Positions 12,190 through 55,904 of a stretch of 64,000 nt of DNA are shown here, piece after piece. Source of the stretch: Escherichia coli (lineage in GTDB: Bacteria > Pseudomonadota > Gammaproteobacteria > Enterobacterales > Enterobacteriaceae); the NCBI RefSeq assembly GCF_003790525.1, contig NZ_CP033635.1; one strand, 5' to 3'. The translations under genes and the position numbers were made by a program. The first letter of the stretch is position 1. Each line of letters starts with the position of its first letter. The notes under the pieces were generated by a model. It was given only the letters and a program-made list of their open reading frames with translations, had not been told where the DNA came from and did not search any database.

Positions 12190-12200
12190 GGAAGGGAAAC

Positions 12201-12250
12201 TTGACTTCATATTGTGATGTCATACTATTGATGTCATAAAGTGAAGTCAT
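12201..12250 (+). promoter_or_regulatory. Putative sigma70 promoter and operator repeats of the HicA/HicB-like operon
   Basis: TTGACT (12201-12206), 16-bp spacer, TACTAT (12223-12228); inverted repeat TGACTTCA (12202-12209) / TGAAGTCA (12242-12249) and direct repeats TGATGTCATA; AAGGA SD at 12251-12255. Confidence 0.35.
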
Positions 12251-12305
12251 AAGGACATGCCATGAGAACCCTGGTACAGGCTTTACGGAAGAAACAAAAA
12301 ATACA

Positions 12306-12536
12306 TTGGATCAAATATTTAAATCTCCTGTTCCTCAAGGGATTAAGTGGTCTGATATAGAGTCACTGGTTAAAGCATTAGGCGGAGAAATTAAGGAAGG
12401 AAGAGGTTCGCGTTGTAAGTTCATACTAAATATGAGCGTTGCGTGTTTCCATCGGCCTCATCCGTCGCCAGATACCGATAAAGGCGCTGTAGAAAGCGTG
12501 CGTGACTGGTTACTAAGTATAGGGGTAAAACCATGA
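12306..12536 (+). CDS. HicA-like toxin (YcfA/HicA family); TTG start as drawn, possibly frameshifted relative to an upstream ATG at 12262
   Basis: Core IKWSDIESLVKALGGEIKEGRGSRCKF...FHRPHP...VRDWLLSIGV resembles HicA-family mRNA interferase toxins; stop overlaps the downstream antitoxin ATG (ATGA). See finding on the A6 tract. Confidence 0.55.
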   Translation: MDQIFKSPVPQGIKWSDIESLVKALGGEIKEGRGSRCKFILNMSVACFHRPHPSPDTDKGAVESVRDWLLSIGVKP

Positions 12537-12892
12537 TCAAACTGAAGACGCCAAACTCTATGGAGATTGCCGGGCAACCTGCTGTTATCACTTACGTGCC
12601 AGAACTGAATGCATTTCGTGGCAAATTCCTGGGCTTGTCAGGTTATTGTGATTTTGTCTCTGACAGCATTCAGGGGCTGCAAAAAGAAGGGGAGCTTTCC
12701 CTGCGAGAGTATCTTGAGGATTGTAAAGCTGCGGGTATTGAGCCGTATGCGCGTACAGAAAAGATTAAGACCTTTACATTACGCTATCCAGAATCGCTGA
12801 GTGAACGCCTTAATAATGCGGCTGCGCAGCAACAAGTCTCTGTAAATACTTATATTATTGAAACGCTAAATGAGCGTTTGAATCATTTATAA
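12533..12892 (+). CDS. HicB-like antitoxin with C-terminal ribbon-helix-helix DNA-binding domain
   Basis: 119-aa ORF; N-terminal HicB-like region (YxGxF...EDCKAAGIEP) and C-terminal RHH-like TLRYPESLSERLNNAAAQQQVSVNTYIIETLNERL; AGGGG SD; overlaps toxin stop. Confidence 0.65.
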   Translation: MIKLKTPNSMEIAGQPAVITYVPELNAFRGKFLGLSGYCDFVSDSIQGLQKEGELSLREYLEDCKAAGIEPYARTEKIKTFTLRYPESLSERLNNAAAQQQVSVNTYIIETLNERLNHL

Positions 12893-12941
12893 CTTATAGC
12901 GGCCCAACAATTTCTGTTGCGCCGCTATATTTTTGTGGCTC

Positions 12942-13802
12942 TTAAGATGCCTTTCTAATCAATCGATGCCCCTCATTCATCATCAGGATTTTGCTATACA
13001 CATCTTCCTCGACGGCATTTTTTGCTGATGCCATCACTCGTGCCAGATTCGCCTCGTTGTGATTATTCACATACGCTTTGCCGACGGCAGTGATAAACGC
13101 TTTGCGCAGATCGCTGGCGATATTCACTTTAGCGACGCGATAATTAACGAAACTGCGTAATATCTCCGGGGCGATACCGGAGCCGCCGTGAATAACCAGC
13201 GGCACCGGGCTGACTTCGGCAATGCGCTTCAGCAGGGGGATATCGATCCGCGGTATATCGTCCAGGCCATGAACGTTACCAATAGAAACTGCCAGCATGT
13301 CGCAACCGGTGCGTTCGACAAAGGTCTTCACCTTTTCCGGTTCCGTTTTGCAATCGGCTTCGCTGACGTGATCGTCTTCTTTGCCGAGAATCGCCCCCAG
13401 CTCCGCTTCAACCGGTACGCCATAGGATTTACAGAAATCGACAGCTTCCTGGGTGAAAGCGATATTCTCTTCAAAAGAGAATGCGGCACCGTCAATCATG
13501 ACCGAGGTAAAGCCCGCGCGCACCGCCTGTTTAACATCCTCCTGAGTTTTCCCGTGATCAAGATGAAGACTGACCGGAACATCCATTTTATCAGCGTGAC
13601 GTTTCACGATTTCATAAATGTAATCGTATCCCGACAGTTGTGCATTGGTGGGCGCAATCTGAATGAAGTTGGGTAATCCTGAACGCTCAATGGCGTTTAA
13701 AATTGAAATCGTTGTCTCCAGATTGGTGGTATTAAATGCGCCCGCTAATACCCGTTTTTCCTGAATGCGGTCGAGCAGTATCCGTCCATTAACTAATGGC
13801 AT
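12942..13802 (-). CDS. Class II ketose-bisphosphate aldolase (GatY/KbaY/FbaA family)
   Basis: 286-aa ORF with zinc-site motif SLHLDHG and GxxHG typical of class II tagatose/fructose-bisphosphate aldolases; last gene of the minus-strand PTS operon. Confidence 0.8.
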   Translation of the reverse strand: MPLVNGRILLDRIQEKRVLAGAFNTTNLETTISILNAIERSGLPNFIQIAPTNAQLSGYDYIYEIVKRHADKMDVPVSLHLDHGKTQEDVKQAVRAGFTSVMIDGAAFSFEENIAFTQEAVDFCKSYGVPVEAELGAILGKEDDHVSEADCKTEPEKVKTFVERTGCDMLAVSIGNVHGLDDIPRIDIPLLKRIAEVSPVPLVIHGGSGIAPEILRSFVNYRVAKVNIASDLRKAFITAVGKAYVNNHNEANLARVMASAKNAVEEDVYSKILMMNEGHRLIRKAS

Positions 13803-13833
13803 ATTGAAAACCTCATCTTTTAATATCAGTTAA

Positions 13834-14103
13834 TTATTCAGCTTCACCGAAGCGGTCGCGAAATAAGGTAGTGAGAGTTTGTATTGCCTCGTTTTCATCA
13901 TCACCTTCGCAGCGTATTTCCACCGTTTTTCCGCCTTTTATTCCGGCGCGCATAATATTCATCATGCTGGTGGCATTAATATCATTACCTTCATAATGCA
14001 GCGTCACTTTACAGCTATATTTTTTGGCGGCTTTCGCCAGACAGGCCGCCGGACGTGCATGCAGGCCAGTACTGTTTCTGACCTCCACGGTTTTACTCAA
14101 CAT
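13834..14103 (-). CDS. HPr-family phosphocarrier protein (operon-dedicated paralog)
   Basis: 89-aa ORF with active-site His15 context GLHARPA and HPr-like length; start overlaps the kinase stop by 11 nt. Confidence 0.8.
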   Translation of the reverse strand: MLSKTVEVRNSTGLHARPAACLAKAAKKYSCKVTLHYEGNDINATSMMNIMRAGIKGGKTVEIRCEGDDENEAIQTLTTLFRDRFGEAE

Positions 14104-15601
14104 AGTGCTCCTCCCGATGATGTAATGGCATCACGCCTTCTTGCTGTAATTTCAACTGATACCAGCTTTTCCATTTGTGCTGATAACGCTGTAATTGATG
14201 GTATCTCGCCCGATTCGGTAACAAACGTTGGGCTATGGTGACTTGCGGCGGTGGAATATCCGGTGCGGCGGTTAATAATGCTCCGACAGAAACCGCCTCG
14301 TTAAATGCAATTGCTTCAACCGGACGCTGTAAAATATCCGCCTTTAATTGCAGCCAAAGGGGATTACGGGTTGCCGGACCTATCACTTTTAACGCGCTGG
14401 TGCCGGGCACATTAAAACAGGCGAAGCAGTTGGCAAATTCCATGGTTAATCCCAGTGAGACGCTGGCAATTAACATATCGATATTTAACGTATCGCCAAG
14501 CCCATAAAATAATCCTCGGGTATGGCGATTTTTATAGGGCGAACCCGAACCGCGAAGATGCGGAATAAAAACGGGAATGTCATCGAGCGACCAGTTCCCC
14601 GCCAGGTAATCCGCATGTCCGCGAGTAAGTGATGCGGCGATCTCCTCATCGGTTAGCCGGAACGTGTTGCGCAGCCACTCCAGAGCGAAACCGCCCACCG
14701 GCAGCGACGCAAACAGGGTGAACTGGTTTGCAAGCGAATAACAGCCGTTTGCCAGCTTGTCACGTTTGGCATGTTCATCCAGCGTCGGTTGTGTATCCAG
14801 TTGCAGAATGCCTTCTGTGGTGCCCGTCGAGTTAAGGATATCGCCCGGCGTCATCTGCAACGCCCGCGCACCCACCATATGGTCATGCCCGGCCAGCGTC
14901 ACGCTGACCGGTTGCAAGAACCCAAGCGTTTTGCAGAGCGACTCGCTGACCCATCCGGCGTGCTCGCCTGGCTGCACCAATGGCGCAAATGCTGAACAGG
15001 GAACGTGTAACAACGCCGCCGCTTTCGCTGACCATTCGCCTTTACGCACGTCCAGACACAGCGTACGGCTGGCTAAGGTGATATCCGTACGCTGTTCGCC
15101 AGTCAGCCGCCAGAGCAGTACTTCCGGCGCATGTAGCCAACGCAGGCCGCGGCGATTACGCAGTGGATAATGCTCCAGCAACCAACGCATTTTGAAGGCA
15201 GAGTAATTGCTGTGCAGCGGTAGCCCGCAGATGTCATAAAGCGCCGCACTGTCTGCCTCACTAAGCGTTGCCAGGTACTCTTCACCGCGGCGGTCATACC
15301 ATGCCAGCATTGGCGTCAGGATCTCGCCATGCTCGTCAAGAAACACCCCTGACTCGCCAAAACTGGCAATGCTTATCCGCCTGACCGGCAGCGGCGAAGC
15401 GGCGCTCAGTTGCGCTATTGCCTGGCGGACCTCCTGCCAGAGGGCGTCGATATCGAAATCGACATCGCCCTGTGGGGAGATCTGTTTTGCCGTCACGAAT
15501 TTATGCGCGCCCAACGTCGTTGCATCCAGGCAGGAAAAGCAGGTGACTTTGCAATTGGTGGTGCCAATATCGATAACGATAGCTGCGCTGTTATCAGGCA
15601 T
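14093..15601 (-). CDS. FGGY-family carbohydrate kinase
   Basis: 502-aa ORF with FGGY N-terminal motif VIDIGTTNCK and two actin-like ATPase halves; overlaps the EIIC stop by 8 nt. Confidence 0.75.
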   Translation of the reverse strand: MPDNSAAIVIDIGTTNCKVTCFSCLDATTLGAHKFVTAKQISPQGDVDFDIDALWQEVRQAIAQLSAASPLPVRRISIASFGESGVFLDEHGEILTPMLAWYDRRGEEYLATLSEADSAALYDICGLPLHSNYSAFKMRWLLEHYPLRNRRGLRWLHAPEVLLWRLTGEQRTDITLASRTLCLDVRKGEWSAKAAALLHVPCSAFAPLVQPGEHAGWVSESLCKTLGFLQPVSVTLAGHDHMVGARALQMTPGDILNSTGTTEGILQLDTQPTLDEHAKRDKLANGCYSLANQFTLFASLPVGGFALEWLRNTFRLTDEEIAASLTRGHADYLAGNWSLDDIPVFIPHLRGSGSPYKNRHTRGLFYGLGDTLNIDMLIASVSLGLTMEFANCFACFNVPGTSALKVIGPATRNPLWLQLKADILQRPVEAIAFNEAVSVGALLTAAPDIPPPQVTIAQRLLPNRARYHQLQRYQHKWKSWYQLKLQQEGVMPLHHREEHYVE

Positions 15602-16952
15602 AAACCGTGCTCCGCGTCATTCGGAAAATGCCATACAGTACCAGGGCGATAACCGGCACCAGACCAATGGCGATGAGATTGCCGTTGAAGATTTCCAGCA
15701 GCCAGAAGCGGAACGGGTTACCGCCATCAAGGAAACTGGAAACCTGGCCGCTGGAGCCTTCGGCAAATTTGAAGTTAACGTCTTTCGCCATTCCGGTAAT
15801 AAACGGCGCGATTTTAGTGGCAATCCACAGGTCGGCAATAATCACCGGGATCGCCGCCAGAACGGTGCGGAAAATATTGCCACGGCTGGCTAAAGCAATC
15901 ATCGACGCCATTACCGCCAGGTTGGCAAGGTCACCAAGCGGCAGGACTTCATTACCTGGGAGGACAAACGCGATAAAGACCGAGATTGGCGTCAGCAGCA
16001 GGGCGGTGGAGATAATCGCCGGGTTACCTACGGCAACGGCGATATCCAGGCCGATATAGAGATCGTCACGGTCAGGGTATTTGGCATTGAGATACTTTTT
16101 AATGGCTTCAGACAGCGGTAATAAACCTTCCATCAGGATGCGTACCATGCGTGGCAGGATGAACATCACACCGCCAATGCTGATGCCAAGCAGCAAGACT
16201 TTTTTGAAATCGTATCCGGCAATTACGCCGAGCAGAATGCCCAGAATAGTGCCAACCATCATCGGTTCGCCGAAGATGCCAAACTTTTTCTGTACGGTTT
16301 CCGGGTCGATATGAATACGATTGAGGCCAGGGATATGGTCGATGATTTTGTCGACCAGCAGACCGACCGGGAAGAACACCACCGAAGAGAGCGTCGGCAA
16401 TGAGATCCCTTCCAGGCCAAAGTATTTTTGTACCAGTGGCGCAGACCAGTCGGCGAGTTTTAGCACCACCACTGCGGCAATCGCGGCCGCCAGCAAACCA
16501 AAGAACAGGCTGCCGGTGCTGTAATAAACCAGCGTACCGGCAAGGGCAAAATGCCAGTAGTTCCACATATCTACATCAACGGTGCGGGTTTTATTCAACG
16601 CCAGCATTGCGACATTAATCAGAATGGTCAGGGGAATAACAAACGGGGCAATTGGCGACCCCCAGGTAATGGCAGAAAGCGGCGGCCAGCCTAAATCCAC
16701 CACCGGTAAATTAATTCCGGTGCGTTCAACCATCGCCTGGGCCGCTGGCCCGACATTGCTGGTAAGAATATCGAAAATGGCATAAATACCGACAAAACCA
16801 ATGCCGACCGTTAATGACGAGCGTAAGGCTTTAGCGGGTTTTACTTTAAAACAGAGAGCAAGAATAAATAACACCAACGGCAACATTACCGTGGGGCCAA
16901 ATCCCAATATATATTGCACAATATTATAGAGGGTATGCGCGATATCGTTCAT
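15594..16952 (-). CDS. PTS galactitol-family EIIC permease
   Basis: Start taken at the internal ATG (MNDIAHTLYNIV...) preceded by AAGAGG; 452 aa, polytopic, collinear with GatC-type IIC proteins. Confidence 0.8.
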   Translation of the reverse strand: MNDIAHTLYNIVQYILGFGPTVMLPLVLFILALCFKVKPAKALRSSLTVGIGFVGIYAIFDILTSNVGPAAQAMVERTGINLPVVDLGWPPLSAITWGSPIAPFVIPLTILINVAMLALNKTRTVDVDMWNYWHFALAGTLVYYSTGSLFFGLLAAAIAAVVVLKLADWSAPLVQKYFGLEGISLPTLSSVVFFPVGLLVDKIIDHIPGLNRIHIDPETVQKKFGIFGEPMMVGTILGILLGVIAGYDFKKVLLLGISIGGVMFILPRMVRILMEGLLPLSEAIKKYLNAKYPDRDDLYIGLDIAVAVGNPAIISTALLLTPISVFIAFVLPGNEVLPLGDLANLAVMASMIALASRGNIFRTVLAAIPVIIADLWIATKIAPFITGMAKDVNFKFAEGSSGQVSSFLDGGNPFRFWLLEIFNGNLIAIGLVPVIALVLYGIFRMTRSTVYA

Positions 16953-17025
16953 AATAAACCTCTTTTTCAGGCGAGAGCGCACCTCGCGTTAGCGCCTGAT
17001 GGAGTGGGTTGGAATTAATTATTAA

Positions 17026-17307
17026 TTACTTTTTAAGAATCGAAACAATTTGCGCCAGCACTTTCTCTTCGCCAATACCGGTAATAATGGGTAAGCCGTT
17101 AACCACCGGCACGTCGAGTTCATAAGGCACTTTAGTCGTTGAAACAACCAGCGCTACGCCGTCGGTATTACCGGGTAAAGAGGCAACGTTGGTTTGGGAA
17201 TAATTGACGTTAAGGCCGTGCTCTTTGCAATACTCCATGACTTTTTCTGTTACCGCCGTGGATGTGGCAATACCTGTGGCGCAGACAAATAAAATGGTTT
17301 GACTCAT
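17026..17307 (-). CDS. PTS galactitol-family EIIB
   Basis: 93-aa ORF with N-terminal phospho-Cys context ILFVCATGIATS. Confidence 0.8.
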   Translation of the reverse strand: MSQTILFVCATGIATSTAVTEKVMEYCKEHGLNVNYSQTNVASLPGNTDGVALVVSTTKVPYELDVPVVNGLPIITGIGEEKVLAQIVSILKK

Positions 17308-17789
17308 ATTTCACCTCGTTCATTCATTTTGTTTAAGATTACTGTGTGTATTTCTGTTGTTTCCATCGTAAGCAAGGCTTGCATAAAGGGCGTATCCTGA
17401 ATCATCTCCATAATCCAGCCCAGGGCATTTAATTGTTTGTTACTTTCGCTTAAGGCGAGCAAAAAAATCACCCTGACAGGCACGGGATCAGGGTCGCCGC
17501 CCATATCGGCAAACTCTACCGGCTCTGGCAAAATACCGACGGCAATTGCATTGTGCCGGACATGTTTATGGTCCGTGTGCGGAATGGCGACGCACGGTGG
17601 TTCGGTAGGCAGCCCCGTTGGATACGTCGCCTCACGTTTCAGTACGTGATTGGCAAAATCAGGGACCACCAGCTCAGCAGCAACCAACGGTTGCGCTAAC
17701 TGACGGATGATCTGTTCAACGCTTAACCCTGCCGGAAGTCGTTGAATATAATTTTCCTGAAACTGTATGCCTTGCATTTTATTCCTCAT
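17304..17789 (-). CDS. PTS EIIA (mannitol/fructose-type EIIA-2 fold)
   Basis: 161-aa ORF with AIPH phospho-His motif; 4-nt overlap with EIIB start. Confidence 0.75.
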   Translation of the reverse strand: MRNKMQGIQFQENYIQRLPAGLSVEQIIRQLAQPLVAAELVVPDFANHVLKREATYPTGLPTEPPCVAIPHTDHKHVRHNAIAVGILPEPVEFADMGGDPDPVPVRVIFLLALSESNKQLNALGWIMEMIQDTPFMQALLTMETTEIHTVILNKMNERGEI

Positions 17790-17801
17790 AAAAAAGTGTA
17801 T

Positions 17802-18548
17802 TTAACTCACTTCCCGCCGTTGCAGCACGGTGCCCAGATAATATTTATTTCCTTTTAACCAGACGTTGCCAAACTCAACGGGTAACTCTCGGGAGAAAAA
17901 GACTAACTGCTCCAGATGCAAAACGGGTGCATCTTCACTGATATCTAAAAAATGACCGCGTTCATTACCAATTAATCGCGCGGCATAGCGACTTTCCGAG
18001 TAACGAATTTTTCTTTGCGACAAACTTTCTATTGTTGGAAATAAATTGTGTTGATTAAAATCGATTTCCACGATGCCGGGGCATAGCTCAATATTGATAC
18101 GGTTCTCTATCAGCATCGCTTTTTCATCACCAATTGAACGTAAACGCTCAAGGTAAAGAATATCCTGACCGGGCGTTATTCTTAATTTCTCTGCCACATA
18201 ACGATTAGCCGGTTCAATCCGTGACGTAATAACTTCAGTGGTAAAATGTATTTTCTGGCTTTCCAGCGATTCCGCGAATGACAATAATCCTTCACCTAAC
18301 GGATATGCCACGTTCTCTTTTTTGACAAAAGTTCCCTTCCCCTGGACCTGAATCAACACGCCTTCTTTTACCAGTTGGGCGACCGCTTTTTTAACGGTTC
18401 CCCGACTCACTTCCAGCATATCCATAATCTGGTATTCCGAAGGAATGCGATCGTCTTCCACCAGATCCCCGGTATAAATACTTTCTCTTATCCACTCCAC
18501 CACTTGTTGATAGAGCGGTATTTGTGACGACTTACTTAATGATTTCAT
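17802..18548 (-). CDS. GntR/HutC-family transcriptional regulator (HTH plus UTRA effector domain)
   Basis: Track ORF to 18557 (GTG); ATG at 18546-18548 (MKSLSKSSQIPLYQQ...) with AGGTG SD preferred. N-terminal GntR wHTH (SEYQIMDMLEVSRGTVKKAVAQL). Confidence 0.8.
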   Translation of the reverse strand: MKSLSKSSQIPLYQQVVEWIRESIYTGDLVEDDRIPSEYQIMDMLEVSRGTVKKAVAQLVKEGVLIQVQGKGTFVKKENVAYPLGEGLLSFAESLESQKIHFTTEVITSRIEPANRYVAEKLRITPGQDILYLERLRSIGDEKAMLIENRINIELCPGIVEIDFNQHNLFPTIESLSQRKIRYSESRYAARLIGNERGHFLDISEDAPVLHLEQLVFFSRELPVEFGNVWLKGNKYYLGTVLQRREVS

Positions 18549-18571
18549 GGCGCGCACCTGAACATTTACAG

Positions 18572-18585
18572 TTGTCTATGGACAA
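18572..18585 (-). promoter_or_regulatory. Putative GntR-family operator upstream of the PTS regulator
   Basis: Palindrome TTGTCTATGGACAA matching the GntR/HutC consensus, followed by a direct repeat GACAA; lies just upstream of the regulator start. Confidence 0.4.
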
Positions 18586-18746
18586 TCATGGACAACTTCA
18601 AGCGTATAGTAGGTGAACGGGAGAAAAAGAGGATCGAAGCGTCTCACATTTTGAGGGACCAAATCGTGATCAAAAAAATGTGACGTGAGTCGATATTTGG
18701 CAGGAATTTACTGCGCCGTCAGGAAATAACGGCGCGTGGGTAGGTG

Positions 18747-21550
<2,804 letters not shown>

Positions 21551-45512: not shown

Positions 45513-45518
45513 ATTATC

Positions 45519-45551
45519 AATAACCCGGCAGCTAAGTTCTGCCGGGTTATT
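45519..45551. terminator. Hairpin after livF
   Basis: Perfect 13-bp inverted repeat AATAACCCGGCAG / CTGCCGGGTTATT with 7-nt loop, 7 bp after the livF stop; no strong T-run. Confidence 0.5.
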
Positions 45552-45630
45552 CGTCCGTATACAGACTTGTTTCAACAGACCGGGAGGATTAAAACCAGAC
45601 CACTTATTTGCCACGGAAAGGTTTGCTCCC

Positions 45631-46377
45631 ATGCATTATGCCGTTGTTGTCATGCTTGAACTGCTTTGCTGTATTCACGCTTACCGTACCGGACAAGAGC
45701 GGTACTGGATTTTTATCATTTTCTGTTTTCCGGTGATTGGCTGCGTGGCGTATTTCGTCATAGTGATGTTGCCTGAAACGGGCGCTGACCGTCACGGGCA
45801 TACTTTGCTGATGCGCCTGCAGGACAAACTCAACCCTGAGCGCCACCTGCGCAAATTAACCGAAGAACTGGCGATTGCCGAGACGAATCAAAACCATTAT
45901 GCGTTGGCTAATGAACTGGTGTGTCTGGGGCGTTATCACGAAGCTGTTCCCCATTATCAGCAGGCGTTAAGCGGGATATTCGTCCATGAAGCGGCAATGA
46001 TGCTAAGCCTGGCGCAGGCGCAGTTTGCCATTCAGGAGTTCGCCGCCTGTCAGCAGACGCTGGAAGATGTGATGCGTTATAACCCCGATTTTCAGTCGGC
46101 AGACGGGCATTTGTTATTTGCCAGAGCGTTAGCCGCACAAGAAAAATACGCTGATGCGGAAAGCGAGTTTGAGGTGTTGATTTCTTATTACTCCGGCCCG
46201 CAGGCGCGTATTTACTATGCGGAAATGTTGGCGAAAATGAGTCGGTTACGTGAAGCCAACGAGCAGTATATTGCTGTGGTTGATACGGCTAAACGTTCAA
46301 AACCACATTATAGAAAACACCACCGGGAATGGATTAAGACCGCCAATGAACGGCTGAAGCAGAGTGTGGTGCAATGA
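45631..46377 (+). CDS. Hypothetical membrane-anchored protein: N-terminal PLDc_N-like two-helix domain plus C-terminal TPR-like helical domain
   Basis: 248-aa ORF; N-terminus VVVMLELLCCIHAYRTGQERYWIFIIFCFPVIGCVAYFVIV resembles the PLD-nuclease N-terminal membrane domain; remainder predicted helical-repeat. Own terminators downstream. Confidence 0.55.
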   Translation: MHYAVVVMLELLCCIHAYRTGQERYWIFIIFCFPVIGCVAYFVIVMLPETGADRHGHTLLMRLQDKLNPERHLRKLTEELAIAETNQNHYALANELVCLGRYHEAVPHYQQALSGIFVHEAAMMLSLAQAQFAIQEFAACQQTLEDVMRYNPDFQSADGHLLFARALAAQEKYADAESEFEVLISYYSGPQARIYYAEMLAKMSRLREANEQYIAVVDTAKRSKPHYRKHHREWIKTANERLKQSVVQ

Positions 46378-46447
46378 AAATCTTCTTTGCCGTTAGACCA
46401 GTGTCGCGGCAATCTTTTGTTAAAATTGAAAAATGTAGCTCTCATCG

Positions 46448-46485
46448 GGCAGCAAAACTGGACGCAGAATTTGCTGCCATTTTTG
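46448..46485 (+). terminator. Rho-independent terminator downstream of the 248-aa ORF
   Basis: Stem GGCAGCAAA / TTTGCTGCC followed by ATTTTTG; a second hairpin GGCGATTA / TAATCGCC + TCTTTT lies at about 46507-46537. Confidence 0.55.
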
Positions 46486-46600
46486 CTCTTCATGGTAAGG
46501 AGTTCTGGCGATTAGCTGGCCGTTAATCGCCTCTTTTCAGTGCATTCTCGGGATATCCGTGCCCCATCTCCCATTTTCCCTCACCCGTACCGTCACCGCC

Positions 46601-52238: not shown

Positions 52239-53984
52239 ATGATAAAACCGACGTTTTTACGCCGGGTGGCCATTGCTGCTCTGTTCACAGGAAGTTGTTT
52301 TAGTACGGTAGCCGCGCCACCTGCGCCGTCTCCTGTTTCTTACGGCGTGGAGGAAGATGTCTTTCATCCGGTACGCGCGAAACAGGGGATGGTGGCGTCT
52401 GTCGATGCCACTGCCACCCAAGTGGGGGTAGATATTCTAAAGGAGGGCGGGAATGCCGTTGATGCTGCCGTGGCAGTGGGCTACGCGCTGGCGGTAACGC
52501 ATCCGCAGGCAGGAAATTTGGGCGGTGGTGGTTTTATGCTGATCCGCTCGAAAAATGGCAATACCACCGCTATCGATTTCCGCGAAATGGCACCCGCCAA
52601 AGCGACCCGCGATATGTTCCTTGATGATCAGGGCAACCCGGACAGCAAAAAATCACTCACTTCGCATCTGGCTTCTGGTACGCCCGGTACGGTAGCAGGT
52701 TTCTCGCTGGCGTTGGAGAAGTACGGCACCATGCCGTTGAACAAAGTGGTGCAACCGGCGTTTAAACTGGCACGCGATGGTTTTATCGTTAACGACGCGT
52801 TGGCTGACGATCTCAAAACCTACGGTAGCGAAGTATTGCCGAATCACGAAAACAGCAAGGCTATCTTCTGGAAAGAGGGCGCGCCGCTGAAAAAGGGTGA
52901 CAAGCTGGTGCAGGCGAACCTGGCAAAGAGCCTGGAGATGATTGCCGAAAACGGCCCGGACGAATTCTACAAAGGCACGATAGCGGAACAGATTGCCCAG
53001 GAGATGCAGAAAAACGGTGGCTTGATCACTAAAGAAGATTTAGCGGCGTATAAAGCGGTCGAACGTACACCGATTAGCGGCGAATATCGCGGGTATCAGG
53101 TTTACTCGATGCCACCGCCATCTTCCGGTGGGATTCATATCGTGCAGATCCTCAATATCCTGGAAAACTTCGATATGAAGAAATATGGCTTTGGCAGTGC
53201 CGACGCGATGCAAATCATGGCAGAAGCTGAGAAATACGCCTACGCCGACCGCTCGGAATATCTTGGCGATCCGGATTTTGTCAAAGTACCGTGGCAGGCG
53301 CTGACCAATAAAGCCTATGCCAAATCTATTGCCGATCAAATCGATATCAATAAAGCGAAGCCATCCAGCGAAATTCGCCCCGGCAAGCTTGCGCCTTATG
53401 AGAGTAATCAAACTACCCATTACTCAGTGGTGGATAAAGACGGTAACGCGGTGGCGGTGACCTATACGCTGAACACCACCTTCGGTACGGGCATTGTCGC
53501 GGGCGAGAGCGGTATTCTGCTTAATAACCAGATGGATGATTTCTCCGCCAAACCGGGCGTACCGAACGTTTACGGGCTGGTGGGCGGCGATGCCAACGCC
53601 GTCGGGCCGAATAAACGCCCGCTGTCGTCGATGTCACCAACCATTGTGGTCAAGGATGGTAAAACCTGGCTGGTCACCGGAAGCCCAGGCGGTAGCCGGA
53701 TTATCACCACTGTGCTGCAAATGGTGGTGAATAGCATCGATTATGGAATGAACGTCGCCGAAGCGACCAATGCGCCGCGTTTCCACCATCAGTGGTTGCC
53801 GGACGAGCTGCGTGTCGAAAAAGGGTTTAGCCCGGATACGATCAAGCTGCTGGAAGCAAAAGGTCAGAAAGTGGCGCTGAAAGAGGCGATGGGCAGTACA
53901 CAAAGCATTATGGTTGGGCCGGACGGTGAGCTGTACGGTGCATCCGACCCACGCTCGGTGGATGATTTAACTGCGGGGTATTAA
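52239..53984 (+). CDS. ggt: Gamma-glutamyltranspeptidase Ggt
   Basis: Start taken at ATG 52239 (MIKPTFLRRVAIAAL...), 581 aa; catalytic Thr in TTHYSVVDKDGNAV. Confidence 0.9.
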   Translation: MIKPTFLRRVAIAALFTGSCFSTVAAPPAPSPVSYGVEEDVFHPVRAKQGMVASVDATATQVGVDILKEGGNAVDAAVAVGYALAVTHPQAGNLGGGGFMLIRSKNGNTTAIDFREMAPAKATRDMFLDDQGNPDSKKSLTSHLASGTPGTVAGFSLALEKYGTMPLNKVVQPAFKLARDGFIVNDALADDLKTYGSEVLPNHENSKAIFWKEGAPLKKGDKLVQANLAKSLEMIAENGPDEFYKGTIAEQIAQEMQKNGGLITKEDLAAYKAVERTPISGEYRGYQVYSMPPPSSGGIHIVQILNILENFDMKKYGFGSADAMQIMAEAEKYAYADRSEYLGDPDFVKVPWQALTNKAYAKSIADQIDINKAKPSSEIRPGKLAPYESNQTTHYSVVDKDGNAVAVTYTLNTTFGTGIVAGESGILLNNQMDDFSAKPGVPNVYGLVGGDANAVGPNKRPLSSMSPTIVVKDGKTWLVTGSPGGSRIITTVLQMVVNSIDYGMNVAEATNAPRFHHQWLPDELRVEKGFSPDTIKLLEAKGQKVALKEAMGSTQSIMVGPDGELYGASDPRSVDDLTAGY

Positions 53985-53989
53985 TATCT

Positions 53990-54018
53990 TAAGCCCTCTC
54001 CCGGTAGGTGAGGGCTTA
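53990..54018. terminator. Bidirectional hairpin between convergent ggt and yhhY
   Basis: Stem TAAGCCCTC / GAGGGCTTA with 11-nt loop in a 60-bp intergenic gap. Confidence 0.5.
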
Positions 54019-54044
54019 AATGACAAACGTAGATTGCAAATTCT

Positions 54045-54533
54045 CTATTTCACCCGCGCCATATAATACGCATCGACATATTCACCATTACGCAGCGCGT
54101 ACTTCTTGCCAGTCCCTTCAATCTCAAAGCCAAATTTTTTATAGACCTTAATTGCTGGCGCGTTATCGACGAACACCGTTAGCTCAATACGATCTACCCG
54201 CAACCAGTTGTCGCACATTTCAATCATCTCTCGCATCAGGGCGCTGGCGACGCCGCGGTTCTTCCAACGGGAGTCGACACAGATACCAAAGTCGGCAACA
54301 TGACTGCGGTGTGGGCGTTGTTGCACGTCAATGGTGAGATGGCCTACGACGATTCCATCAATACAGGCGACTAACTGCTTGATGCCGGGGCGAGCGGTGA
54401 GTCGTTCCAGCCACATTTGTTCTGAAGGATGAGGCACCTGTAGCGTGTTGTAATACACCTCCGGCTGGGCGTGAATCTGCCTGATGGCCTCGTAATCGCG
54501 TGTTTCTGCGTGGCGTATTACTATCTCACTCAT
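54045..54533 (-). CDS. yhhY: GNAT-family N-acetyltransferase YhhY
   Basis: Start taken at internal ATG (MSEIVIRHAETRDYEAIRQIH...), 162 aa. Confidence 0.85.
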   Translation of the reverse strand: MSEIVIRHAETRDYEAIRQIHAQPEVYYNTLQVPHPSEQMWLERLTARPGIKQLVACIDGIVVGHLTIDVQQRPHRSHVADFGICVDSRWKNRGVASALMREMIEMCDNWLRVDRIELTVFVDNAPAIKVYKKFGFEIEGTGKKYALRNGEYVDAYYMARVK

Positions 54534-54628
54534 TCCTTTGTCCTCTTTGGGGTAAATGTCCCTTTCAACATCATTGACTTTCAAATGCGAGTCAAATGCA
54601 TTTTTTTGCAAAAAGTGTTGGACAAGTG

Positions 54629-54649
54629 CGAATGAGAATGATTATTATT
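54629..54649 (+). promoter_or_regulatory. Fur box overlapping the ryhB promoter
   Basis: GCGAATGAGAATGATTATTATT resembles the Fur consensus GATAATGATAATCATTATC, immediately upstream of the RyhB 5' end. Confidence 0.6.
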
Positions 54650-54654
54650 GTCTC

Positions 54655-54744
54655 GCGATCAGGAAGACCCTCGCGGAGAACCTGAAAGCACGACATTGCT
54701 CACATTGCTTCCAGTATTACTTAGCCAGCCGGGTGCTGGCTTTT
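54655..54744 (+). ncRNA. ryhB: Fur-regulated iron-sparing small RNA RyhB
   Basis: Sequence GCGATCAGGAAGACCCTCGCGGAGAACCTGAAAGCACGACATTGCTCACATTGCTTCCAGTATTACTTAGCCAGCCGGGTGCTGGCTTTT recognised as RyhB, ending in its terminator hairpin GCCAGC-CGGGT-GCTGGC + T9; sits in the yhhY/yhhX intergenic region. Confidence 0.9.
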
Positions 54745-54866
54745 TTTTTGACCTTTCGTTCTCAATTTATCCTCGGGAAGTGCTTGTGTTCGTTATGCGC
54801 ACTCCAGTAGGAACCACGTCCGCTTTGCGCTAAGGTGTAAATAACCACCTTAAAAAGGACGAAATC

Positions 54867-55904
54867 ATGGTCATTAACTGCGCCTTTATTGGCTTCGGCA
54901 AAAGCACCACCCGTTACCATCTGCCGTATGTACTTAACCGCAAGGATAGCTGGCATGTCGCGCATATTTTTCGCCGCCATGCGAAGCCGGAAGAACAGGC
55001 CCCCATTTATTCCCATATCCATTTCACCAGCGATCTCGACGAAGTGCTAAACGATCCCGATGTTAAGCTGGTTGTCGTCTGCACCCACGCGGACAGCCAC
55101 TTCGAGTACGCGAAGCGCGCGCTGGAAGCCGGGAAAAATGTGCTGGTCGAAAAACCGTTCACTCCGACAATTGCGCAGGCGAAAGAGCTGTTTGCACTGG
55201 CGAAAAGCAAAGGGCTGATCGTTACGCCGTATCAGAATCGTCGCTTTGATTCCTGTTTCCTGACAGCGAAAAAAGCGATTGAAAGCGGCAAGCTGGGAGA
55301 GATTGTCGAAGTGGAAAGCCATTTTGACTATTACCGCCCGGTGGCAGAAACCAAACCTGGGCTGCCGCAGGATGGCGCGTTCTATGGCCTTGGTGTGCAT
55401 ACGATGGACCAGATTATTTCTCTGTTCGGTCGCCCGGATCACGTCGCTTATGACATCCGCAGCCTGCGTAATAAAGCCAATCCGGACGACACCTTTGAAG
55501 CGCAGCTGTTTTATGGCGATCTAAAAGCCATCGTCAAAACCAGCCATCTGGTGAAAATCGATTATCCGAAATTTATCGTTCACGGTAAGAAAGGTTCGTT
55601 TATTAAATACGGTATCGACCAGCAGGAAACCAGCCTGAAGGCTAATATTATGCCGGGCGAACCGGGATTCGCAGCGGATGATTCGGTCGGTGTGCTGGAG
55701 TATGTCAATGACGAGGGTGTGACGGTCAGAAAAGAGATGAAGCCGGAGGTGGGCGATTACGGGCGCGTTTATGATGCGTTGTATCAAACCATCACCAACG
55801 GTGCGCCAAATTACGTCAAGGAATCTGAAGTTCTTACCAATTTGGAAATCCTTGAACGCGGTTTTGAGCAAGCCTCTCCCTCCACAGTGACTCTCGCGAA
55901 GTAA
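54867..55904 (+). CDS. yhhX: Gfo/Idh/MocA-family NAD(P)-dependent oxidoreductase YhhX
   Basis: 345-aa ORF with N-terminal Rossmann motif AFIGFGKS. Confidence 0.9.
   Translation: MVINCAFIGFGKSTTRYHLPYVLNRKDSWHVAHIFRRHAKPEEQAPIYSHIHFTSDLDEVLNDPDVKLVVVCTHADSHFEYAKRALEAGKNVLVEKPFTPTIAQAKELFALAKSKGLIVTPYQNRRFDSCFLTAKKAIESGKLGEIVEVESHFDYYRPVAETKPGLPQDGAFYGLGVHTMDQIISLFGRPDHVAYDIRSLRNKANPDDTFEAQLFYGDLKAIVKTSHLVKIDYPKFIVHGKKGSFIKYGIDQQETSLKANIMPGEPGFAADDSVGVLEYVNDEGVTVRKEMKPEVGDYGRVYDALYQTITNGAPNYVKESEVLTNLEILERGFEQASPSTVTLAK

Follow-up and report, generated by a model that had tools for sequence, protein, structure and literature searches.

On comparison with other genomes, the 60-bp junction between the ggt and yhhY genes in the stretch of Escherichia coli DNA analysed here (the window; 64,000 nucleotides) is very probably the ancestral, never-occupied allele of a site that holds an islet in K-12; the islet would have been acquired elsewhere in E. 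coli, spread by recombination and remodelled. The difference between the two junctions is an ordinary presence/absence polymorphism of a documented islet and is already known in kind.

The junction in the window and in K-12

The two genes converge on a short spacer, the features of which are listed by position in the window.

52239-53984, plus strand: ggt (gamma-glutamyltransferase), 581 aa, with its TAA stop codon at 53982-53984; left flank of the junction.
53985-54044: ggt-yhhY spacer, 60 bp, separating the two convergent stop codons; the unoccupied form of the islet site.
53989-54019: stem-loop TTAAGCCCTCtCC-cggta-GGtGAGGGCTTAA, which folds on both strands; the sole stem-loop of the spacer.
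54016-54044: 29-nt tail TTAAATGACAAACGTAGATTGCAAATTCT, from the GAGGGC end of the hairpin to the yhhY stop; replaced by the insert in islet-bearing genomes.
54045-54533, minus strand: yhhY (GNAT N-acetyltransferase), 162 aa, with its TAG stop codon at 54045-54047 (CTA on the plus strand); right flank of the junction.

Both flanking genes were identified with NCBIfam equivalog models, ggt with NF007187 (gamma-glutamyltransferase, 1311 bits) and yhhY with NF007527 (N-acetyltransferase PRK10140, YhhY; 363 bits). Since NF007187 aligned from residue 10 of a 590-aa open reading frame, the ggt start was placed at the ATG at 52239, in agreement with the annotation of strain SC516; the yhhY start was placed at 54533 because NF007527 aligned to residues 27-188 of a longer open reading frame. 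Equivalog models also identified the neighbouring genes as ugpQ, yhhA and yhhX. Along a 1,251-bp junction query the window was 100% identical to SC516 (chicken, China). An Rfam scan of positions 53800-55000 (E ≤ 1) gave no match inside the spacer. The only match, further to the right, was the small RNA RyhB (RF00057; 83.1 bits, gathering score 55) at 54684-54748 on the plus strand, between yhhY and yhhX as in K-12.

The original prediction had put 60 bp between the two stop codons, a distance that the sequence and the list of open reading frames bear out, and had held that a K-12 segment with yrhB, an IS1-disrupted yrhA and yhhZ was absent from this genome. Both the K-12 arrangement and its absence were confirmed. 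In the MG1655 record the yhhY-ggt interval measures 3,454 bp, not 60, and contains yhhZ ('putative endonuclease'), yrhA split by IS1E (insA6/insB6), yrhD and yrhB. Pairwise BLAST of the window against K-12 showed homology through the final base of the ggt stop codon and again from a point 3 bp before the yhhY stop, the break lying only between the two stops; the aligned flanks were 96.4% (ggt) and 94.1% (yhhY) identical. The junction in the window was contiguous, and tblastn searches for YhhZ, YrhA and YrhB across the 64-kb window found no match.

Local identity to K-12 was 94.8-95.3% from ugp to ggt and about 93% in yhhY. Strong hyper-divergence around the junction was considered and rejected, since the whole window is just 96-97% identical to K-12; because the excess over that level is modest, no reading was built on local divergence.

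Islet content and related systems

In strain PSUO2 the islet is free of IS1 and measures 2,676 bp. Its GC content was 33.6%, and that of the O55:H7 insert at the same site 31.6%, compared with 53.8% for ggt and 51.7% for yhhY. YhhZ matched the Pfam family T6SS_HCP at its N-terminus (E = 1.2e-11; 45.4 bits, cut-off 23.5), and its C-terminal HNH match, at 17.3 bits, lay below the Pfam cut-off of 21.4. YrhB matched Imm35 (E = 1.2e-22, 80.2 bits); a Pfam search of YrhA, encoded directly downstream of yhhZ, and of YrhD returned no match. The islet is presumed to encode an Hcp-fused HNH-type nuclease toxin (YhhZ, 'Hcp-ET' class) together with YrhA as the presumed immunity protein.

These genes have been described before. 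YhhZ has been called an 'evolved Hcp' with a degenerate HNH domain (PMC2907695) and assigned to group 32 of the His-Me finger nucleases (PMC5714182), and the yhhZ-yrhAB cluster, which O104:H4 strains carry, has been listed as a predicted genomic island, 'Gist34' (PMC3309015). According to passages in PMC6730261 and in a preprint (bioRxiv 10.1101/2024.03.05.583533), Hcp-ET1 is an E. coli Hcp-HNH effector with DNase activity, which T6SS2 delivers and which ETI1, encoded downstream, neutralises; the same passages attribute the description of Hcp-ET1/ETI1 in STEC to Ma et al. 2017.

YhhZ resembles Hcp-ET1 in architecture: an Hcp domain lies at the N-terminus and a putative HNH-type domain at the C-terminus, and a small gene comes next. 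O104:H4 is both the source of Hcp-ET1 and a carrier of yhhZ-yrhAB. The likeness concerns genes that the window lacks. From this shared architecture and strain background we infer that YhhZ/YrhA may be the Hcp-ET1/ETI1 pair.

The K-12 islet yhhZ-yrhA-yrhD-yrhB (b3442-b3446) lies at the same chromosomal site, between yhhY and ggt, and the window is its unoccupied counterpart. Compared with the K-12 locus, the window has none of the islet genes, carries a different ggt hairpin and possesses the 29-nt tail. The junction marks the strain as one without a YhhZ-type Hcp-nuclease toxin and the adjacent immunity-type genes. If YhhZ is the T6SS2-delivered Hcp-ET1, strains with an empty site should be sensitive to islet-bearing, T6SS2-proficient E. 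coli.

Junction states and the direction of change

The state of the junction was scored in 5,426 complete E. coli genomes, the islet being called where at least 80% of its length was covered. Five states were distinguished.

Islet: 3,758 genomes (about 70% of E. coli, K-12 included).
The 60-bp spacer of the window: 896 genomes, O25b:H4-ST131 records among them.
Second empty variant, 59 bp, with a K-12-type hairpin and the tail as in the window: 75 genomes.
yrhB only, in a 431-bp spacer: 233 genomes.
A 1,856-bp insert with a frameshifted DUF4225 gene and a small membrane ORF: 343 genomes (O157:H7, O55:H7 and relatives).

These states sum to 5,305 genomes; the remaining 120 or so differ, for example in carrying IS-associated partial islets. 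The counts were cross-checked with the 1,251-bp junction query, of which at least 80% was covered in 1,242 genomes, a figure near the 896 + 75 + 233 genomes with the two empty variants and the yrhB-only state. Together the two empty variants account for about 18% of the 5,426 genomes, and the ggt-yhhY site is a clean and easily typed presence/absence marker. The second empty variant also forms the junction of APEC E12049 (O78:H4), whose yhhY (L006, 7036-7524) reaches no more than about 83% identity with any other Escherichia yhhY in the comparison. The yhhX of this strain is 98.6-99.9% identical to E. coli alleles, and its yhhY looks like a locally imported, very divergent allele.

The boundaries of the inserts were read from a comparison of the junctions of the window, K-12, PSUO2, EC2341, O55:H7 and APEC E12049. 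In the occupied states a hairpin follows the ggt stop directly, in an allele different from that of the window, GGTTAGCGGCCCTCTTCGTGGGAAGAGGGC. Foreign DNA takes up the whole interval from ...GAGGGC(T) to the yhhY stop, and the 29-nt tail is gone. Target-site duplications had been proposed as the marks that would define the K-12 insertion, and none was found at the islet ends, nor was any terminal inverted repeat beyond short matches at chance level. The only such duplication is internal, the 9-bp GACATTAAA that flanks IS1E inside yrhA, and the IS1E insertion is an event later than the islet. The islet annotation in K-12 and PSUO2 contained no recombinase or integrase gene.

For the direction of change, one representative genome per GTDB species was scanned for YhhY relatives, and ggt, yhhX and yhhA were located at each locus. 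Outside E. coli, yhhY and ggt were adjacent and convergent in 38 of the 39 loci that have both genes, with spacers of 35-131 bp in the 19 loci that were read out. Direct junctions were found within Escherichia in E. albertii, E. whittamii, sp. E1V33, E69 and SCPM-O-B-8794 (the last two from records titled E. coli, yet as divergent as sister species) and in eight other genera, namely Pluralibacter, Pseudocitrobacter, Citrobacter, Lelliottia, Enterobacter, Yokenella, Klebsiella and Huaxiibacter. The sole exception was Franconibacter (F. pulveris, L033, 7490-10348), with 2,859 bp that contain three genes, for an ATPase, a permease and a lipoprotein, which resemble those of a methionine-type ABC transporter.

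E. albertii, E. whittamii and the other Escherichia lineages possess an orthologous spacer of 60-70 bp, to which that of the window was identical at 55 of 60 (E1V33), 57 of 60 (E69) and 52 of 63 (E. albertii) positions. Because such spacers occur in other Escherichia and the two genes are directly adjacent in eight further genera, the direct 60-bp junction reads as the ancestral allele and not as a loss; this outgroup comparison fixes the direction of change, with the K-12 state appearing as the derived one.

A secondary loss would require that the window lineage once had the yhhZ-yrhB islet and deleted it precisely, leaving the 60-bp junction as a scar. The islet is indeed the majority state in E. 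coli, and PSUO2 carries it beside a yhhY allele nearly identical to that of the window. However, deletion cannot regenerate the window spacer, since islet-bearing genomes lack the 29-nt tail and have a different hairpin, and the spacer matches those of islet-free sister species at 52-57 of about 60 positions. A return to the empty state would instead require allelic replacement from an empty-site donor, in which case the allele itself would still be ancestral. Loss by deletion is therefore regarded as quite unlikely. Since flanking alleles have been reshuffled, 'ancestral' describes the allele and not necessarily unbroken descent in the window strain; a formerly islet-bearing lineage could have regained the empty allele through recombination.

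The occupied states proved to be related to one another. The first 338 bp of the yrhB-only state are common with the islet, and its other 96 bp, next to yhhY, are unrelated to it. An origin of this state by simple deletion was rejected, as nothing in the full islet corresponds to these 96 bp. In the O157-type insert, positions 60-146 were 72% identical to the 5' end of yrhB and the 96-bp region of the yrhB-only state. Because the occupied states share the K-12-type hairpin and either yrhB or a remnant of it, they seem to descend from one acquisition in which internal cassettes were replaced, and not from repeated independent insertions. Such replacement is usual at polymorphic toxin/immunity loci.

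The original prediction had spoken of an insertion hotspot in other strains. The site is variable, with at least five states, although the term overstates the case given the apparent descent of the occupied states from one remodelled acquisition. A true hotspot, with the junction or the hairpin end hit repeatedly and independently by different mobile cassettes, would account for the four different sequences that start after ...GAGGGC(T), namely those of the islet, of the O157/O55 insert and of the yrhB-only state, together with 385 bp of GC-rich DNA in strain HS-02. The metNIQ-like genes between yhhY and ggt in Franconibacter and the IS1E in K-12 yrhA could be counted on the same side. Nevertheless, the three main occupied states have in common the K-12-type hairpin and yrhB or its 72%-identical remnant (5' end and upstream region), and IS1E sits within the islet, not at the junction. 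The gap between hairpin and yhhY is only 29 nt, so that any tolerated event must map there, and the search for a recombinase, an att site or a target-site duplication at the junction was negative. The HS-02 sequence may be an assembly artefact. Repeated insertion thus seems unlikely.

The stretch in HS-02 (L007, about 7033-7385) is extremely GC-rich (CGCCCCGCCGGCCC...), lies after a hairpin of the window type and cuts yhhY short. Whether foreign DNA or an artefact of assembly, it is unlike all else at the locus.

The preferred history, then, starts from the empty junction. An AT-rich foreign islet of about 2.7 kb would have entered one E. coli lineage, taking the place of the 29-nt tail that separates the ggt hairpin from the yhhY stop and bringing in the YhhZ toxin, its presumed immunity protein YrhA, yrhD and the Imm35 immunity-type YrhB. 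Its spread and reshuffling among strains would have come next, presumably with the core genes on either side as the substrate for homologous recombination. The reshuffled flank in PSUO2 fits such a spread, since the islet there lies beside a yhhY allele 99.0% identical to that of the window (K-12 yhhY, 92.8%). Remodelling into the yrhB-only and O157/O55 variants would have followed, as well as the insertion of IS1E into yrhA in the K-12 lineage. The window genome would never have received the islet and would therefore be without its toxin and immunity genes.

Two other accounts of the locus were judged very unlikely. The empty and islet alleles might be an old polymorphism kept by selection, strains with and without the Hcp-nuclease/immunity pair coexisting through contact-dependent killing, which would account for the higher divergence of the linked ggt and yhhY alleles (93-95% identity against 96-97% elsewhere in the window), or the 3' end of the ggt hairpin might be a preferred breakpoint for cassette exchange. 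The pointers to either are the coincidence of the breakpoints and the modest rise in divergence, nothing more.

The spacer hairpin and other differences from K-12

The hairpin has the form TTAAGCCCTC-t-CC / cggta / GG-t-GAGGGCTTAA, with a 10-bp outer stem (TTAAGCCCTC / GAGGGCTTAA) and two inner pairs. The folding energy of an 81-nt context was -22.5 kcal/mol for the plus strand and -24.5 kcal/mol for the minus strand (z against shuffled sequences of -2.0 and -3.1, respectively). The original prediction of one bidirectional hairpin holds for the structure, which can form on both transcripts, but it does not qualify as a canonical intrinsic terminator in either direction. Neither strand has a T-run behind it, the tails being TTAAATGA (plus) and TTAAGATATT (minus), and a terminator scan of 53700-54400 on both strands, which required at least five T in eight positions, called no site. 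Like bidirectional intrinsic terminators, the window has a GC-rich stem-loop between converging stops that can fold on both transcripts; it differs from them in that its allele has no U-tract on either strand. A U-tract is present on the ggt side of the K-12-type hairpin allele (GAAGAGGGC-TATTTTGT).

The stem was kept in all seven Escherichia spacers, with three of 13 pairs altered on both sides yet still paired, and its position beside the ggt stop was constant in all Escherichia lineages compared. The hairpin is probably a shared 3'-end structure of the ggt and yhhY transcripts, a function suggested by its form and place.

That it might instead be a remnant of a dispersed repeat (a REP-like element) was considered highly improbable. 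The spacers of Enterobacter, Klebsiella, Citrobacter, Lelliottia and Pseudocitrobacter contain at least one GC-rich palindrome, of the types GCCGGGTGGCG... and CCCTCTCCC...GGGAGAGGG, which we take to resemble dispersed repeats. Against a repeat origin, E. coli genomes carry the window spacer in single copy (median of one place per genome, maximum of two), and the stem keeps its place next to the ggt stop across Escherichia lineages, with some compensatory changes. A 3'-end structure thus remains the preferred reading.

In E. albertii (L011, 6454-6521) the central part of the hairpin is the reverse complement of positions 53989-54019 of the window, with the loop CCTACCGG against CCGGTAGG. Judged from this alignment, the element appears to have been flipped in place between E. 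albertii and the species of the window.

The window differed from K-12 at three other places. About 6.6 kb (12190-18748) had no BLAST match to the corresponding K-12 interval, rhsB-yhhH-yrhC-yhhI, and this is probably different Rhs toxin/immunity content. Between livF and ugpB (45513-46553) the window has about 1 kb compared with 216 bp in K-12; an open reading frame there (45631-46377, plus strand) encodes 248 aa with TPR repeats and had no PADLOC match. Between gntU and yhgN (59952-63434) lies a 3.5-kb segment that is not in K-12, where the interval is 57 bp. Its two open reading frames, at 60091-62187 and 62094-63389 on the plus strand, encode a RecQ-like helicase and a DprA/SLOG-like protein, for which the PADLOC matches were to PsyrT (1058 bits) and PsyrA (669 bits); these matches identify the segment as a PsyrTA-type toxin-antitoxin/anti-phage defence pair. 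Empty at ggt-yhhY, the window is occupied by this pair 6 kb away.
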